The notes below the pieces were generated by a model that saw only the letters and a list, made by a program, of their open reading frames with translations, was not told the origin of the DNA and did no database searches. From NCBI GenBank assembly GCA_051986365.1, contig JBPYFG010000403.1, positions 1 through 27,567 on the forward strand: a stretch of DNA of 27,567 bases, given 5' to 3'. This DNA is from Xanthobacteraceae bacterium (GTDB lineage Bacteria > Pseudomonadota > Alphaproteobacteria > Rhizobiales > Xanthobacteraceae). Positions 18,742 to 26,889 of this stretch are shown piece by piece (within the stretch, counting starts at the first letter, position 1; the number at the start of each line of letters is the position of its first letter). Made by a program: the position numbers and the translations under genes.

Positions 18742-19458
18742 ATGGCTGAGCCGCTACTGGCGATCGAAAATGTGCGCGCTGGCTACGGCTCTGCCGTCGT
18801 GCTCGACGGCGTGTCGTTCGATCTCGCATCGCAAGGCGGCCTCGCCGTGCTCGGCCGCAACGGCGTTGGCAAATCGACGCTCTTGCTCACGATCATGGGC
18901 TATACGCGGGTGAGCCGCGGCCGCATCCTCTGGCGTGGCGCCGACATCACTCATGACTCGCCGCACCGCCGGGCGCGCGCCGGTATCGGCTGGGTGGCCC
19001 AGGAGCGCGAGATCTTTTCGACACTGACGGTCGAGGAAAATCTCACCGTCGCCGCCCGCAACGGCCCATGGTCGCTGCCGCGCGTTTATGAACTGTTTCC
19101 GCGGCTTGCCGAACGCCGCCGCAATCTGGGCAATCAATTGTCCGGCGGCGAGCAGCAGATGCTGGCGATCGCGCGCGCGCTGATGACCAATCCAAACCTC
19201 CTTTTACTCGATGAGCCGTTCGAGGGCCTGGCGCCGATTGTGGTCGAAGAGCTGACGGCGGCAATCCGGCGAATGATCGCGGAACGCGTCAATGCTTTTG
19301 TCCTCGTCGAGCAGCATGTCGAGATCGCGCTGCCGCTGACCGAGAGCGTGATCGTACTCGAACGCGGCCGCATCGTGCATCGCGGCGCGTCGGCAGAGCT
19401 TCTTGTCGATCACGCCGCGCTGGAGCGGCTGATCGGGCTCAAGTTGGCAGACGTTTAG
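18742..19458 (+). CDS. LIV-family ABC ATP-binding protein (LivF-like)
   Basis: GRNGVGKST, LSGGEQQMLAIARAL, LLLDEP.EGLAP, LVEQH; start ATG 18742 (MAEPLL). Confidence 0.94.
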   Translation: MAEPLLAIENVRAGYGSAVVLDGVSFDLASQGGLAVLGRNGVGKSTLLLTIMGYTRVSRGRILWRGADITHDSPHRRARAGIGWVAQEREIFSTLTVEENLTVAARNGPWSLPRVYELFPRLAERRRNLGNQLSGGEQQMLAIARALMTNPNLLLLDEPFEGLAPIVVEELTAAIRRMIAERVNAFVLVEQHVEIALPLTESVIVLERGRIVHRGASAELLVDHAALERLIGLKLADV

Positions 19459-19489
19459 CTCTTACTCTTATCGACCGGCTGCCGTCGCG

Positions 19490-20470
19490 TTATGGCTTTA
19501 TCTGCATATGGAATTCCTCGACCACTTTGGTGTAGCGGTCGAGGTCGTCTTGCATGAATTTGGTGTAGGCGGCGGTGCCATTTTCGGCCAAATGGATACC
19601 GAGCGTCTTCAAGCGGGCCGCGATCTCGGGCTCGCGCAAGATCTTTGCGACCGCGGACTGCAGCTTGGCGACAATTGTCGGCGGTACACCGGCCGAGGAC
19701 TGCAGCCCCAGCACAGTTGCGACGTCGAAACCCTTATAGCCAAGCTCATCGCAGGTCGGCACCTCCGGCAGCGACTCGTCGCGCTGCAAGACGCTGATGC
19801 AGAGCGCGCGCAGCTTGCCGGTCTTGATCAACGAAACGACGTTGGGAATTCCGGACCAGCCGGCGTCGACCTCGCCGGTCAAGAGCGCGTTGACGAGACC
19901 GGTGCCGCCGCGATAGGGCACGTGAAGGAGTGTAATGCCGGCGGCTTTTTCGAAGATGATCATCGTCATCTGATGGATCGAGCCGGTGCCCGCGGAGCCG
20001 AAGCTCATCGCCCCAGGCTTGGATTTGGCGAGTGCCACAAATTCGCCAAGCGTTTTGGGGGGCACGTCGGGTCTGATCACCAAAATGGTCGGCAGCCGCG
20101 CCAGAGCGGTGATCGGCGTGAAATCCTTCAGCGTGTAATTGGCGTCGGGATTCATCGCGATGCTGATGCCGAGCGAGCCGGAATCGTTTAGACCTAGCGT
20201 GTAGCCGTCCGGCCGCGCCGCCGCCGTCTGCTTGGCCGCAATCACCCCGCCGACGCCCGGCACGTCTTCAACCACAAACGGATTGCTGAAGATTTCGCTC
20301 AAACGGGCGGAAAGAATTCGCGCCAGCACGTCGGGATTGCCACCGGCGGCCGAAGCCGCGATGACGCGGACCGGATGAGTTGGATAAGCGTCTTCCGCCG
20401 ATGCTGTCGATGTAAAGAGCGCCAAAGCAATCGCTGCGACAGCAGAAATACGAGTGATTATTGATGCCAT
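19490..20470 (-). CDS. Tripartite tricarboxylate transporter substrate-binding protein (Bug/TctC)
   Basis: Signal peptide; YPTHPVRVI...AGGNPDVLAR, PGVGG.I, PDGYTL, SFGSAGTGS..., HVPYRGG, EVPT..ELG. Confidence 0.93.
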   Translation of the reverse strand: MASIITRISAVAAIALALFTSTASAEDAYPTHPVRVIAASAAGGNPDVLARILSARLSEIFSNPFVVEDVPGVGGVIAAKQTAAARPDGYTLGLNDSGSLGISIAMNPDANYTLKDFTPITALARLPTILVIRPDVPPKTLGEFVALAKSKPGAMSFGSAGTGSIHQMTMIIFEKAAGITLLHVPYRGGTGLVNALLTGEVDAGWSGIPNVVSLIKTGKLRALCISVLQRDESLPEVPTCDELGYKGFDVATVLGLQSSAGVPPTIVAKLQSAVAKILREPEIAARLKTLGIHLAENGTAAYTKFMQDDLDRYTKVVEEFHMQIKP

Positions 20471-20483
20471 CGGTCGCAGGTCC

Positions 20484-21632
20484 CTATGTGTCGCCCCAAA
20501 TATCGCACGCCAGATCGCAGACCAGTTCGAGCTTGCGCCTTTGCGCCTCGACTGTCAGCGGATTGCCGGTGTCGAGGCTGGCAAAGCCGCATTGCGGACT
20601 GACCGCGAGCCGATCCAGCGCCACGAACTTGGTCGCCTCGTCGAGGCGGCGTTTGAGAGCAGCCTTGTCCTCGAGCTCCGGTATCTTGGTGGAGACAAGC
20701 CCGAGCACCACCGATTTGTGCTTCGGCATGAAGCGCAGCGGGGTGAAGCTGCCAGCGCGGGGCGTGTCGTATTCGAGGAAATAAAATTGGATGGCCAAAG
20801 CATTGAACAGCCGTTCCGCAACCTCTTCGTAGCTGCCTTCGGCGTGCCAGTGGCCGCCGCGATTGCCGCGGCAAAGGTGCATGCCGATGTACATGTCCTT
20901 GGGCGCGGCGGCGAGCAGGCGGTTAGTCACCGCGATATATTTGTCGATCAGCGCGCTCCAATCATCGCCGCGCGCGGCGAGCGCGCTCTGTACCTGGGGG
21001 TCACCGAATTTGGCGAAAGCGGTTTCGTCGATCTGGACGTAACGGCAACCCGCCGCCGCAAGGGCGCGAAGCTCACATGTGAAGGCGTTGATCGTATCGG
21101 ACCAGAACTGATCCACGTCCTGGTATGCGCTTGCCGTTATCGCGGCATCGCCGCCGCGGAAGTGCAGCGCACAGGGCCCTGGAATCGTGATCTTCGGCCA
21201 GCGATTTGAGCGAATTTTGAGGAAGGCCGCGTCGGCCGTGTTGATCGGATGAGTCCATTGCACGCGGCTGCCGATTATCGCGACCGGCTGTGCGCCGCGT
21301 CCGCCGTCCCCGTCCGCGCCAACAGCATCGGCGCCGCCGATCGTGTCGATGCGCAATTGCCCAAGCCCGCCGTAGAAAAAGCTGTGATAGGAGCGACGAC
21401 GAAATTCGCCATCAGTGACAAATTTGAAGCCCAATTGCTCTTGCAGCCGAATCGCGTCGGCAATGGCGTCATCTTCGGCGGCGGCGAGCGCGGCGGCGGC
21501 GATCTCGCCCTTGGCAAAGCGGGCGCGTTCGCGCAGCAATTTGGCCGGACGCAGCAAGCTGCCGATATGCTCGGCGCGAAACGGCGGTTGTGCCGCGGCC
21601 ACATTTGCCGCCGCCTGCAAGCGGGCATTCAC
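20484..21632 (-). CDS. Single-barrel cobalamin-independent methionine synthase-like Zn protein (YxjG/YxjH-like; Meth_synt_2)
   Basis: PPFRAEHIGSLLRP, TDGEFRR, CRYVQIDE, Zn ligands HLCRGN, FLEYD, SPQCGFAS; only about 380 aa (no N-terminal barrel). GTG 21632 with GGAGG SD overlaps upstream stop. Confidence 0.88.
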   Translation of the reverse strand: MNARLQAAANVAAAQPPFRAEHIGSLLRPAKLLRERARFAKGEIAAAALAAAEDDAIADAIRLQEQLGFKFVTDGEFRRRSYHSFFYGGLGQLRIDTIGGADAVGADGDGGRGAQPVAIIGSRVQWTHPINTADAAFLKIRSNRWPKITIPGPCALHFRGGDAAITASAYQDVDQFWSDTINAFTCELRALAAAGCRYVQIDETAFAKFGDPQVQSALAARGDDWSALIDKYIAVTNRLLAAAPKDMYIGMHLCRGNRGGHWHAEGSYEEVAERLFNALAIQFYFLEYDTPRAGSFTPLRFMPKHKSVVLGLVSTKIPELEDKAALKRRLDEATKFVALDRLAVSPQCGFASLDTGNPLTVEAQRRKLELVCDLACDIWGDT

Positions 21633-22684
21633 GAACTGCCTCCGATCTCTGGCATCCTCACACCGTCTGCTTTTGCCATCGCTGCCAATTCGTCCCACAG
21701 CTTTGCCGGAATCGGGATGCCGGTCTTGCGGCGCGCCGCTTCAGTGCGGCTGCCGCGCTCACCGGGTAATAAAATTTCATCGAATCCGGCCCGGCGGGGC
21801 AGCGCCTTGATGATCGCGGCAAGCGCGTCGGCGTCGGTCTGAAAGTCGACCAGCGGCCGAAACGTTTCGATATCGATCACGACCATCGCGGTATTGGCGG
21901 TGTGCGGCGTGCCTTTTTGCGGGCCGAGCGCCGGCGCCTGGATCGGTGCTGCCGCAAGCACGCTGGCCAGCATTTCGAACATGAACGCCAATCCCGAACC
22001 CTTAGGACCGCCAAGCGGCAGCAGGATCTCGGCTTGTTTGGCATCGGTCGTCGGCTCGCCGGCGGCAGTGAGCACGGTACCTTCCGGTAGCGCCGCGCCG
22101 GTGGCGCGCGCCTGCAAGATCTTGCCGTTTGAGATCGTGCTGGCCGACATGTCGAGAGCGATAAGACCTTTGCTGCTCGGCACCGCAATGGCAATCGGAC
22201 TCGTCGCCATGCTGGCAACCCGCGCGCCGTGATAGGCCATCAAAGTAGGCCCGGCGCCCATGAGCAGCGCGGCACAGCCACGCCCGGCGATCCATTGCGC
22301 GTAACGTCCGATCGCGCCGGTATGGGTTGTGTGGCGAATGAGCGCGAAGCAGACCCCGATCTGTTTCGCCCGCTCGACCGCGCGCGCGGCCCCCTCCATC
22401 ACGGCGACGGGACCGAAGCCGTGCCCGCCATCGATCATCAAAGTCGCGCCGCGATCATGCACAGGCCGCGGCTGCGCTTTGACATCGATCTCACCGCTGG
22501 CCAGAAGCTTCACATAGCGCGGCAGCCGTGACACGCCATGGCCGTCGCCCCCGCGCAGATTGGCCCAGACCAGTCCCTGCGCCACGATCGTGGCGTCGTG
22601 GGCGTTGGCGCCATGCTTGACGAGAATGTCCGCGATGAAACGGCCGAGCTCGTCATGGCCGACCAGCTTGGCGGGCGCACTCAT
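21629..22684 (-). CDS. Ldh_2 family NAD(P)-dependent oxidoreductase (malate/L-sulfolactate/ureidoglycolate dehydrogenase-like)
   Basis: GHGVSRLPRY, DGGHGFG, HTGAIGRYA, TSPIAIAVP, LDMSAS, LGGPKGSGLA, LPGERG; start ATG 22684 overlaps upstream stop (ATGA). Confidence 0.92.
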   Translation of the reverse strand: MSAPAKLVGHDELGRFIADILVKHGANAHDATIVAQGLVWANLRGGDGHGVSRLPRYVKLLASGEIDVKAQPRPVHDRGATLMIDGGHGFGPVAVMEGAARAVERAKQIGVCFALIRHTTHTGAIGRYAQWIAGRGCAALLMGAGPTLMAYHGARVASMATSPIAIAVPSSKGLIALDMSASTISNGKILQARATGAALPEGTVLTAAGEPTTDAKQAEILLPLGGPKGSGLAFMFEMLASVLAAAPIQAPALGPQKGTPHTANTAMVVIDIETFRPLVDFQTDADALAAIIKALPRRAGFDEILLPGERGSRTEAARRKTGIPIPAKLWDELAAMAKADGVRMPEIGGSS

Positions 22685-23586
22685 GCTTTGCCCCGCGTCG
22701 GGAAATAGGCGTCGAGCCAGTTGCGCAGCAGCGTCCACACACGCGCCGAATTCTCGGCAAACAGAAAATGGTCGAGCCCGCTGAACAAATGTAGCTCAGC
22801 CGGTTGGCCGGCGCGCTTGAACATTTCGATCGACTGCTCGGTCGGAGTCACCGAATCATTGGCGGCATGGATCAAGAGCAAGGGGCGCGGTGCGATCTTG
22901 GCGACCACCTCTTCGGCGCGAAAATCGAACATGCTCTGCGCCGTCTCGGCCGGAAACATCTCGACCGAATTCGGCGCCAACATGCCGACCTTTTGCCGTT
23001 CCAGATTTTGCCGCACGTGGTCCGGGATTGGCACGATATCGTAGCGGGGTACCATCAGCGATTTGCCGGTCTGCGTGCGATGGGTGCGGCCCTCTTCCAG
23101 CATTTTGGTGAACTTGACCCAGGCTTCCGGCGTGCGGTGCTGGCCGCGAAATTTGCGTTCGCCGTGGCCCCAGCCGCCGTTCGAAATCACCGCGGCAAGG
23201 CGCGGATTGATGCCGCCGGCATAAACGGCGACGGCGCCGCCGAAGCTCGAACCGATCGCGCCGATGCGGTCCGGCTCAACCGCCGGATGGGAAGCGAGAA
23301 AGTCGAGCGCATTGCCGAGGTCTTCGACCTGTTCCAGGCAGATGACGCGGCCGAATTCTCCCTCGCTTTTGCCGCAGCCGCGCATGTCGAAGCGCAGCGT
23401 GACATAGCCGAATTGGTTGAGCACGCGCGTCGGCGCCAGCACGTTTGAGCTTTCGGAGTTGGAGCCGAAGCCGTGCAATACCAGGAATGCCGCACGCCGT
23501 TCCGACGCGCCCAGGTCCTCCGGCATGCCGAGCACGCCATGCAGGCGCAAGCCTGCGGACTGGAAACTGACCACCTGTTCTTTCAC
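22681..23586 (-). CDS. Alpha/beta-fold serine hydrolase (S33/S15-like)
   Basis: LHGFGS, RFDMRGCGKSEG, GSSFGG nucleophile elbow, HAANDSVTP (Asp), GLDH (His); start inferred at GTG 23586. Confidence 0.88.
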   Translation of the reverse strand: MKEQVVSFQSAGLRLHGVLGMPEDLGASERRAAFLVLHGFGSNSESSNVLAPTRVLNQFGYVTLRFDMRGCGKSEGEFGRVICLEQVEDLGNALDFLASHPAVEPDRIGAIGSSFGGAVAVYAGGINPRLAAVISNGGWGHGERKFRGQHRTPEAWVKFTKMLEEGRTHRTQTGKSLMVPRYDIVPIPDHVRQNLERQKVGMLAPNSVEMFPAETAQSMFDFRAEEVVAKIAPRPLLLIHAANDSVTPTEQSIEMFKRAGQPAELHLFSGLDHFLFAENSARVWTLLRNWLDAYFPTRGKA

Positions 23587-23677
23587 GACTGTGCCATCCC
23601 GGTTTTGATCCGGCGGCACTGTAGCGATTTGCCGCGGCAACGGAAGAGGTTGCGGGCCGCCGAAGGCCGAGACTTTT

Positions 23678-25276
23678 TCAGCGCAGCGATGGGGCGGTGG
23701 GCAACGATTGAGCGCTGCGGCCCGGCCAGCGTTCATGCGTCAGCGGCACGGCAAGCTTCACGCTCAGGCCCTTGCGCGAATATGAGTAGACGACTTCGCC
23801 ATTGAGCTGGCGCCGGATAACGAGATCGATGAGCCGCATGCCGAAGCCGAGCTTGCGCGGGCGACGCGCCGGCGGGCCATTTTTCTCGATCCAATCGAGA
23901 GAGAGCGTCATGCCGCGCTGCGCGCGGCTCACCGACCAGCGCAGCTCGAGCTGGCCCTTCGGCCGCGACAGGCTGCCGTGCTTGATGGCGTTGCCGGCAA
24001 GCTCATGCAGCGCGGCGCTCAGATGGAAAACCGGATCAGGCTCGAGATCGAAGTTCGGGCCGTCGAACAATACCCGATCGATATAAGGCCCCAACAAGAC
24101 GTAAAGCAGCTCCATGATCGGGATCGATTTCCAACCACCCTCGGTGATCAGCCGGTGGGCATTCGCCATCGCCAAGACACGGGCTTGATACTTGCTGGAG
24201 AGGTCGGGAATGCCCTTCGAAGTCCGCGCCGTCTGCGAGAATAATGCCAAGAGCTGCGAGAACAGATTGCCGGAGCGATGCCGCATGTCGCGAATCATCA
24301 ATTCGTGGCGCTGTTCGAGCTGGCGGCGCTGAATCGCGCCGGCCAAAAGATTGCCGATCGCGGCCAAAAACGAAATGTCCTGCGGATGAAATTTTCTTTT
24401 TTTGGCGGTGCAGACGCCGAGAATGCCATAGGCCCGGCCGTCGGGGCCGGCAATGCTTACGGTCACGCCGCTCTTGCAGCTGTGATCCTTCAAATAGCTC
24501 GGCATCTCGAATCTTGTCTCGGCGTCGAAATCGTCAACGACAATTGGAGCCGCCGAGTCCAGGGTGACGCGCGCAAAACTGTTCGCTGCGCCGGTGGTCA
24601 GGATCGAACCGACCAGATCGGATTTCCAACCATACCCGCTTCGCAGCAAGAGCTCGGTATCGCCCGGCAGCAATTCCAGGATCTTGACGAAATCGACATT
24701 TAGCGTCAGCGCAATCGTGCTGACCGCGTCATTTAAGAGCCGCTCCAGATCCGGTTCCACCAATGCCCGCTCGCCAAGCTGCGCCAGGGCTTCTTGTTGC
24801 TTAATCCTGCTGCGCAACTCGGTTTCGAGATTGGCCCGCTCGGTCACGTCGTAACACAAACCAAGGATGCGTCTGGCAGCGCCACCCTCGACGAAAACGG
24901 CGCCGCTCGTTGCGAGCCAGCGTTCGTCGGAGTTCGCGCTATGCGCGACGCGATAACGTGCGCGAAAGGCGCCTCGTTTTCGCACCGCTTCTTGCAGAGC
25001 GGCGTTGACCGCGCCGCGATCCTCTTCATTGATGACCTTGAGGAAGCCGGCATAGCTGCCGTCGAAACCGCCCGGCGGCAAGCCATGCAGCGCCGCAAGA
25101 TTGCTGGACCAGTTCACCGCGTTGGTCGCGAGATCCCATGACCAGACGCCGAGCTGCGCGGCCTCCAACGCCTCGTGGACAGTCGTAAAGTCCGGAAATA
25201 GTTCTGTCGCCTGATCCTGCGCCAGCCGATGTTCCGAACCGAATTTCGGCTGCTTGATGACTTCAGGCCTATCCAT
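23678..25276 (-). CDS. Cytoplasmic HWE-family sensor histidine kinase (PAS-GAF-HWE_HK)
   Basis: LGVWSWDL...NWS PAS fold; GAF segment (GVTVSI...YGILGV...F...DISFL.AIGNLL); H-box RHRSGN; HELAGNAIKHGSLS; W.E motif in DWIEKNGPP; GFGMRLI. No TM helix or LOV cysteine motif. Confidence 0.92.
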   Translation of the reverse strand: MDRPEVIKQPKFGSEHRLAQDQATELFPDFTTVHEALEAAQLGVWSWDLATNAVNWSSNLAALHGLPPGGFDGSYAGFLKVINEEDRGAVNAALQEAVRKRGAFRARYRVAHSANSDERWLATSGAVFVEGGAARRILGLCYDVTERANLETELRSRIKQQEALAQLGERALVEPDLERLLNDAVSTIALTLNVDFVKILELLPGDTELLLRSGYGWKSDLVGSILTTGAANSFARVTLDSAAPIVVDDFDAETRFEMPSYLKDHSCKSGVTVSIAGPDGRAYGILGVCTAKKRKFHPQDISFLAAIGNLLAGAIQRRQLEQRHELMIRDMRHRSGNLFSQLLALFSQTARTSKGIPDLSSKYQARVLAMANAHRLITEGGWKSIPIMELLYVLLGPYIDRVLFDGPNFDLEPDPVFHLSAALHELAGNAIKHGSLSRPKGQLELRWSVSRAQRGMTLSLDWIEKNGPPARRPRKLGFGMRLIDLVIRRQLNGEVVYSYSRKGLSVKLAVPLTHERWPGRSAQSLPTAPSLR

Positions 25277-26864: not shown

Positions 26865-26889
26865 AACGCCCAAAGGCCCGTCGGGTTCC
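26865..26889 (-). promoter_or_regulatory. Sigma-EcfG (sigmaT/RpoE2-type) promoter of the small exported protein
   Basis: Minus strand GGAAC-CCGACGGGCCTTTGGG(16)-CGTT, an exact match to the GSR consensus, correctly oriented, in a phyR locus. Confidence 0.8.

Follow-up and report, generated by a model that had tools for sequence, protein, structure and literature searches.

Two gene pairs of separate history, probably fused within one lineage, make up a four-gene operon of uncultured Xanthobacteraceae

Do four genes joined by overlapping stop and start codons also serve one pathway? The question is raised by a locus on the minus strand of Xanthobacteraceae bacterium contig JBPYFG010000403.1 (GCA_051986365.1), positions 23586-19490 of the window, which is the whole stretch analysed (positions 1-27,567 of the contig; 27,567 nucleotides). 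The locus holds four co-directional open reading frames, encoding an alpha/beta hydrolase, an Ldh_2-family dehydrogenase (Ldh_2), a single-barrel MetE-like enzyme (MetE-like) and a TctC/Bug-type solute-binding protein (TctC). A preliminary description of this DNA held that the four genes very likely form one pathway. We found that the four-gene operon is real but is a young composite and not a conserved system. Its probable origin is a lineage-specific fusion of two independent two-gene modules, hydrolase with Ldh_2 (module A) and MetE-like with TctC (module B). The public relatives of the window were uncultured Xanthobacteraceae metagenome-assembled genomes (MAGs) from soil, bog and peat.

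The hydrolase protein was searched against one genome per species of the uncultured genus, and the best 80 loci, with identities of 81% or more, were kept. Hydrolase and Ldh_2 genes adjoined each other in all 80 species loci, while MetE-like and TctC genes stood behind Ldh_2 in only seven (L073-L079; L and G numbers are our labels for loci and genomes). A hydrolase and Ldh_2 tree built from 75 loci placed these seven loci and the window in one clade with a support of 0.98, and its sister group (L083, L086 and L087) carried no insert. The insert-bearing clade is monophyletic and its sister lacks the insert; we therefore conclude that there was a single insertion event. The variable slot between Ldh_2 and the convergent Liv-type ATP-binding cassette (ABC) operon comprises positions 19459-21628 of the window. 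In the three sister species it measured 300-400 bp, and in other species (L080-L152) it was either empty, with Ldh_2 directly facing the ABC gene, or filled with unrelated genes. Cargo found in the slot elsewhere included an MBL-fold gene, a caspase-like (C14) peptidase, a radical-SAM/B12-binding gene, KatG with LysR, a methyltransferase and unrelated TctC genes on the other strand.

Module B was also found at a second site. An orthologous MetE-like and TctC pair (76-82% identity) was located between carB and carA in G012, G021, G011, L035 and L036, where it was divergent from carB and had about 250 bp of upstream DNA of its own. On one 3.2-Mb contig the two modules were 0.66 Mb apart (L117 and L035, respectively). 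In the genome of the window, carA and carB were neighbours with an empty gap of about 290 bp. A MetE-like orthologue of at least 66% identity was present in only 5 of the 24 genomes of the genus that were searched. Two other genera carried the pair with TctC adjoining, at 78% and 75% identity in G064 and at 68% and 57% identity in G056 for MetE-like and TctC, respectively, and three further genera had MetE-like at 60-68% identity without TctC. In one of these three, at L185:6629-8774 (G059:C66), a MetE-like relative of 65% identity was followed directly by an NMT1/SsuA-type binding protein, with no TctC. MetE-like and TctC are thus a real pair that moved as a unit. In locus L025 (G011:C9:98000-112000, from a 9-contig assembly), carB, MetE-like and TctC were each spread over several frames, most likely through indel errors. 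A reading of the split MetE-like and TctC genes of G011 as pseudogenes was rejected, since carB was also in four pieces there, probably by assembly frameshifts.

Module A recurs on its own as well. The hydrolase was present in 22 of 62 sampled genera of the family. Among 20 hydrolase loci from other genera, Ldh_2 adjoined the hydrolase directly in 7 and lay no more than 3 kb away in 2 others, and a TctC gene adjoined the hydrolase in about 7; these TctC proteins, where they stood beside hydrolase and Ldh_2, were about 30% identical to the window TctC. The surroundings were otherwise unrelated (LolA/FtsK, a luciferase-like oxygenase, an ABC binding protein). Most of the hydrolase-linked Ldh_2 genes fell in one deep clade of the tree, and two hydrolase loci carried a different Ldh_2 lineage, whose placement is on long branches. 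In locus L156:3700-9408 (G159:C26), a PcaB-like cycloisomerase just over the TIGR02426 cut-off, the hydrolase, Ldh_2 and TctC were co-directional in this order, with an IS481-family transposase adjoining; this order suggests that, in the genus concerned, a lactone is formed before the hydrolase acts. Hydrolase and Ldh_2 are therefore a real pair and a recurring module.

The two modules were hardly ever found together outside the clade. No MetE-like orthologue stood beside the hydrolase in the 20 loci from other genera, and in one of them (L161) a weak match of 27% identity lay about 1.2 kb from it. For a family survey we took one genome per genus from 45 genera and collected MetE-like genes at E<=1e-40 (about 130) and Ldh_2 genes at E<=1e-30 (about 105). 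The pair in the window was the only MetE-like/Ldh_2 pair within 10 kb. The only other co-location that we saw was an independent one at L179:221-5125 and L180 (another soil MAG), where MetE-like (47% identity) was divergent from a GntR(FCD), Ldh_2, ABM monooxygenase and aldehyde dehydrogenase series, and the L179 Ldh_2 was 36% identical to that of the window. A general link between MetE-like and Ldh_2 was rejected on this survey, with L179 as a single separate case. A gene-neighbourhood test of co-occurrence of the four families had been set beforehand, and four-gene co-location was absent from phylogenetically separate genomes. The claim of one pathway thus did not hold up as far as it rested on co-occurrence, which failed beyond a shallow clade (7 of 80 loci in the genus and none of 20 in other genera).

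The features of the locus are listed in Table 1. Reading of the junctions showed an ATGA overlap of hydrolase and Ldh_2 (22684-22681), a GTGA overlap of Ldh_2 and MetE-like (21632-21629) with GGAGG 6 nt upstream of the GTG, and a gap of 13 nt between MetE-like and TctC (20483-20471). The stop/start overlap of Ldh_2 and MetE-like, as GTGA or ATGA, was present in all seven other species with the four-gene arrangement. Separate gene calls on near-identical public contigs also gave proteins of 301, 351, 382 and 326 aa, and relatives of the hydrolase aligned over residues 1-301. Only TctC carried a Sec-type signal peptide (...TSTASA/ED, read from the sequence); the hydrolase, Ldh_2 and MetE-like had none and are therefore cytoplasmic. 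The gene order was phyR locus, L,D-transpeptidase, HWE kinase, hydrolase, Ldh_2, the MetE-like and TctC insert, and the convergent Liv-type ABC operon, whose ATPase gene ends at 19458. The HWE sensor kinase upstream was the sole signalling gene near the locus, and no TctA/B or regulator gene was found within or directly beside the four genes. In these respects the preliminary description was accurate: the Pfam and NCBIfam matches bore out its four gene identities, the two overlaps and the gap were as it had given them, it had likewise reported no local TctAB partners or regulator, and its statement that no described pathway has this combination of four families agreed with our literature search, which also yielded none.

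Table 1. Features of the four-gene locus in the window.
Feature	Position	Strand	Details
Alpha/beta hydrolase	23586-22681	(-)	301 aa, GTG start; Pfam Hydrolase_4 6e-19
Ldh_2 dehydrogenase	22684-21629	(-)	351 aa; PF02615 1e-94
Single-barrel MetE-like zinc enzyme	21632-20484	(-)	382 aa; PF01717 7e-15; NF005085/PRK06520 332.6 bits
TctC/Bug binding protein	20470-19490	(-)	326 aa; PF03401 2e-63
Inserted MetE-like and TctC cassette, flanked by the Ldh_2 stop codon and by the convergent Liv-type ABC ATPase gene (3' end)	21628-19490	(-)	
Promoter-like block TTCCGT-N16-TACAGT	23645-23618	(-)	conservation in 9 aligned species

The 91-nt gap between the HWE kinase and the hydrolase contains the block TTCCGT-N16-TACAGT, which was the best-conserved intergenic part in nine aligned species, those without the insert included, and which we infer to be a promoter. 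At the Ldh_2 site the cassette had no promoter of its own. Scans for intrinsic terminators and sigma-70 promoters inside the operon gave nothing over shuffled expectation. Co-transcription of the four genes is probable, mainly because the overlaps are kept in all eight species of the clade. All four genes were covered by assembled contigs of a soil metatranscriptome, at 90-95% identity to the window; a contig of 293 nt spanned the MetE-like/TctC junction, and one of 402 nt (window 23458-23860), with one end within the HWE kinase gene and the other within the hydrolase gene, spanned the gap between them. In addition to the conserved promoter-like block, read-through transcription of the operon from the kinase is therefore possible. 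General-stress control by EcfG, suggested by the neighbouring phyR locus, was rejected, as no EcfG-type motif (GGAAC-N14-19-CGTT) was found upstream of the hydrolase, and the only match in the window was at 26865-26889.

An ancestor of the clade, in this uncultured soil and peat genus, would have received a pre-existing MetE-like and TctC cassette that landed directly behind the hydrolase and Ldh_2 operon and lost its own upstream region in doing so. Under the alternative that all four genes form one four-step pathway, TctC would import an ester or lactone, the hydrolase would cleave it, Ldh_2 would oxidise or reduce the hydroxy- or oxo-acid half and MetE-like would take a methyl or alkyl group off the remaining half and pass it to a thiol. 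The cassette would then have been captured since both modules act on parts of the same compound. Translational coupling kept in eight species, together with the dependence of the cassette on the upstream promoter, fits this alternative, as do the resemblance of the hydrolase to feruloyl, cinnamoyl and chlorogenate esterases and a MHETase, which act on carboxylate esters, the recruitment of TctC genes by hydrolase and Ldh_2 in other genera and the independent co-location at L179. We nevertheless consider one pathway unlikely. The arrangement goes back to a single event seen in 7 of 80 species, both halves work alone elsewhere, the insertion site also takes unrelated cargo, and in 45 genera only the MetE-like gene of the window lay within 10 kb of an Ldh_2 gene. 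Moreover, the window TctC is orthologous to that of the carB/carA cassette, and not to the more distant TctC proteins that accompany hydrolase and Ldh_2 elsewhere.

Several observations speak against a fusion of two independent modules. An overlap kept in eight of eight species and the missing promoter of the cassette mean that expression is coupled, which could reflect a selected functional link. TctC adjoins hydrolase and Ldh_2 in some other genera, so the window TctC could serve both modules, and the co-location at L179 arose independently. The transcript evidence is weak, as the metatranscriptome contigs derive from relatives and may include carried-over DNA, and an assembled contig is not equivalent to a transcript; none of the listed contigs bridged the Ldh_2/MetE-like junction. 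Finally, we found no tested substrate for any NF005085 member or for close relatives of the hydrolase and Ldh_2, and both reaction schemes given below are drawn at the level of the families. On balance the lineage-specific fusion of two modules was still judged the probable reading. As a lesson for method, overlapping stop and start codons show that genes are co-expressed, not that they share a pathway; at this locus the second pair simply came to stand behind a resident one, at a site that accepts cargo of many sorts.

What could module A do in such a fusion? The hydrolase would be a cytoplasmic serine esterase or lactonase that acts on an imported ester or lactone to free or unmask a carboxylic acid of the 2-hydroxy (or 2-oxo) type, and Ldh_2 would interconvert the 2-hydroxy and 2-oxo forms with NAD(P), with the product entering central metabolism. 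Besides Hydrolase_4, the hydrolase had weaker Pfam matches to Abhydrolase_6/1, Peptidase_S9/S15 and DLH. Its best NCBIfam match was the UilS acyl-homoserine lactone (AHL) lactonase with 101 bits, below the cut-off of 400, and the PcaD enol-lactonase model gave 25.5 bits against a cut-off of 255.85. The top PDB match was 7QJM (6e-49), followed by feruloyl and cinnamoyl esterases and a MHETase; 7QJM (enzyme '202') is a promiscuous polyester hydrolase scaffold (PMC9772341). The nucleophile elbow G112-S-S114-F-G (GxSxG) and the catalytic H273 were invariant across 21 hydrolase homologues. The catalytic acid is probably D244, which was not invariant in this alignment. A lid motif, W139-G-H-G-E-R-K-F-R-G-Q-H150, was strongly conserved in the same 21 homologues from many genera, with W139, G140, G142, K145, Q149 and H150 invariant. 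Such conservation of a lid is unusual, and the motif may mark the substrate pocket.

Ldh_2 matched PF02615 over its full length with 317.8 bits (gathering threshold 38.8; residues 28-351, model positions 3-332 of 333), and H49, R53 and H121, at the conserved His/Arg/His positions of the family, were invariant. It scored below the cut-offs of all NCBIfam equivalog models, with 189, 184, 150 and 130 bits for ComC, YbiC-type, AllD and YiaK against cut-offs of 500, 336, 496 and 316, respectively. The nearest PDB chains were 1V9N and 2X06 (ComC), at about 161 bits. These matches raise the idea of a coenzyme M (CoM)/sulfolactate system, with a ComC-type Ldh_2, a MetE-like protein similar to epoxyalkane:CoM transferase and TctC as sulfolactate receptor. 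The best NCBIfam match of Ldh_2 was indeed sulfolactate dehydrogenase, with 2X06 among the best structures. Xanthobacter Py2, which uses CoM, belongs to the Xanthobacteraceae, and Chromohalobacter takes up sulfolactate by a tripartite tricarboxylate transporter (TTT) system. This idea was rejected as highly improbable. The ComC score was far under its cut-off, and ComA (phosphosulfolactate synthase, PF02679) had no match in five genomes of the genus, while three control genomes matched. Furthermore, the MetE-like protein keeps the residues for the amino and carboxyl groups of homocysteine, which are absent from CoM, and the Ldh_2 and MetE-like genes have separate histories.

In module B, TctC would capture a periplasmic carboxylate and pass it to a TctAB permease encoded elsewhere in the genome, and the zinc enzyme would activate the thiol of homocysteine, or of a very similar amino acid, for a folate-free transfer of a methyl or alkyl group from the imported compound. 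The function of the module would be accessory and not housekeeping methionine synthesis. MetE-like scored 332.6 bits with NF005085/PRK06520 (cut-off 313; residues 13-379, model positions 3-368 of 368), which places it in this subfamily. It had only the Meth_synt_2 catalytic barrel (PF01717, 382 aa) and not the two barrels of MetE. It aligned along its entire length with 1YPX, an unliganded Listeria structure (2e-73, and 8.6e-134 with the family profile), and the catalytic barrel of Thermotoga maritima MetE matched its first half with about 29 bits for the single protein and 75 bits for the profile. The MesD-like PDB chain 3RPD gave a weak match with the family profile (7.6e-17), in the first half only. 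H252, C254, E287 and C348 were invariant in 11 orthologues and paralogues and aligned with the zinc motif HxC...E...C of 1YPX; motif and conservation together point to a retained set of zinc ligands. In a profile alignment to 1XPG/1T7L, the invariant MetE-like motifs H-I/V-G-S, D-G-E and Q-I-D-E paired with the homocysteine-binding motifs IGS, GE and QIDE. In T. maritima MetE, the contacts with the carboxyl and amino groups of homocysteine are I409-G-S411, E462 and D577. The pterin-stacking Trp (T. maritima W539, chain W571) was replaced by F158 in MetE-like, within an invariant H157-F-R159-G-G161.

MetH was full-length in all five genomes checked, which argues that MetE-like is not the housekeeping synthase. 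With zinc and homocysteine motifs kept, the folate Trp lost and MetH present, MetE-like is best read as an accessory zinc-thiolate alkyl- or methyltransferase acting on homocysteine or a close analogue, and its non-folate donor is plausibly the compound delivered by TctC. Could it instead be a B12-independent 'core' methionine synthase that backs up MetH, with TctC and the upstream pair functionally unrelated? The intact zinc and homocysteine motifs would suit such an enzyme, NCBI names the family methionine synthase, and a B12-independent backup would be useful to genomes with MetH but no two-barrel MetE; Meth_synt_1 (PF08267) had no match above its cut-off in five genomes of the genus. We regard a backup synthase as distinctly improbable. 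The orthologue was limited to the 5 of 24 genomes mentioned above and several other paralogues were present per genome, and in three genera and three genomic contexts the gene is accompanied by a binding protein of its own. Its relatives stood beside importers or catabolic genes and, in the contexts sampled, never beside methionine-synthesis genes. The folate domain is missing together with the folate-stacking Trp, and no methyl donor is known. No MesX-type gene was found in the window, and MesX (DUF1852, PF08908) had no match in five genomes, in a search where the control genomes did not match either and the control was thus uninformative. A literature search (YxjG/YxjH, MetE-like O-demethylation, core MetE) found no biochemical assignment for the NF005085 subfamily.

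TctC matched PF03401 with 214.7 bits. Its PF03401 match and export signal are those of a TctC/Bug receptor, and TctA membrane partners were found at a distance: the genome of the window, which is incomplete, had two TctA genes on other contigs and at least 47 TctC matches, and the close relative G023 had 69 TctC genes. With so many TctC genes and TctA encoded elsewhere, an orphan TctC without local TctAB is therefore normal here. The structures 6HKE, BugE, BugD, terephthalate-binding proteins and Bug27 matched with similar scores, and a prediction of the TctC ligand from solved homologues was rejected, as all were about equally distant.

Of the 45 Xanthobacteraceae genera sampled, 34 had the MetE-like family, and a single genome could carry as many as 15 copies. 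In three good genomes of the genus there were four to five paralogues per genome at E<=1e-20, a tandem triplet included; a count of 10-28 per genome at E<=1e-3 was rejected as an overcount from weak and fragmentary matches. The idea that the MetE-like family of the genus adjoins TctC in general was rejected on G023, where none of four MetE-like paralogues adjoined any TctC gene; such adjacency is specific to the orthologue group of the window. The tandem triplet, of PRK06520 type and 41-47% identical to the window protein, was kept across the genus and was not beside TctC or Ldh_2 (G005:C3:215882-219198, L026; G012:C2:561322-564917, L027; G023:C2:930171-933497, L028; G022:C9, L030). At G015:C4:294957-296057 the middle copy of the triplet had four in-frame TGA codons and its neighbours had none, which could be a pseudogene or an assembly problem. 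The nearest other MetE-like clusters (50% identity) were located beside importers or catabolic genes. In the nearest one (L173, 58% identity), the neighbours of MetE-like were TauD and ABC permeases, a hint of a role in scavenging organosulfur compounds. A second context was a tripartite ATP-independent periplasmic (TRAP) transporter, DctPQM, with TetR, MR_MLE, ApbA, FAA-hydrolase and a second MetE-like gene, and a third was a divergent Liv-type ABC system.

The wider interest of the locus lies in this family, in which zinc and homocysteine sites are kept, folate contacts are lost and the genes stand repeatedly beside solute importers. Identification of the MetE-like donor would extend what is known of soil carbon or sulfur metabolism by a methyl or alkyl transfer that needs neither folate nor B12, and the hydrolase and Ldh_2 pair is a second recurring module of interest. 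A bolder proposal is that NF005085/PRK06520 enzymes are a large class of cofactor-independent zinc alkyl- and methyltransferases, each with its own solute-binding protein (TctC in the window, and NMT1, TRAP or ABC types among relatives), that strip methyl or alkyl groups from imported organic acids or organosulfur compounds onto homocysteine, and that in this clade one of them was wired to an esterase and a dehydrogenase because the four proteins process one plant- or peat-derived ester. We offer this as speculation that is doubtful at present.

Compared with known systems, and judged by profile scores, each of the four genes belongs to a known family and none is an equivalog of a characterised enzyme. 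The hydrolase shares the alpha/beta fold, GxSxG, His and a lid insertion with the lid-containing carboxylesterases and lactonases of the Hydrolase_4 group (7QJM, the PET46 feruloyl esterase 8B4U, UilS and PcaD), but it scores far under the UilS and PcaD cut-offs and has its own lid motif. Ldh_2 has the full-length PF02615 domain and the His/Arg/His residues in common with ComC, archaeal MdhII-type enzymes, YbiC/HcxB, AllD, DpkA and YiaK. Within this family it is nearest to the ComC and archaeal malate-type chains, and it stays below each equivalog cut-off. It has an alpha/beta hydrolase as a fixed partner, and we know of no described Ldh_2 pathway that includes one. TctC resembles the orphan Bug/TctC receptors (BugD, BugE, Bug27, the MatC-like 6HKE, TphC/TBP and AdpC) in its PF03401 domain, signal peptide, distant TctA and many paralogues, and differs from those with known ligands in being about equally distant from all of them.

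For MetE-like three comparisons can be made. With MetE (EC 2.1.1.14; 1XPG/1T7L), the zinc-ligand and IGS/GE/QIDE motifs align, but the window protein lacks the N-terminal folate barrel (PF08267), its Trp is replaced and the overall similarity is weak. MesA-MesD, half-size relatives of MetE, methylate homocysteine with no need of methyl-folate (Price et al. 2021, PMC7857596; Deobald et al. 2020, PMC7005905). MesA, MesB and MesC use corrinoid proteins and occur in strict anaerobes, and MesD is found in aerobes and requires MesX (PMC7857596; PMC7005905). The window protein shares with them the half-size relatedness to MetE, but MesX had no match in the five genomes, in a search without a positive control. 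Closest are the YxjG/YxjH-type 'methionine synthase II' proteins (NF005085/PRK06520, NF004875/PRK06233 and Listeria 1YPX), with the same single (beta-alpha)8 barrel of about 370-380 aa and HxC...E...C. A reaction was found in the literature for none of these, and the window orthologue differs from them in being coupled to TctC and in standing behind an unrelated operon.

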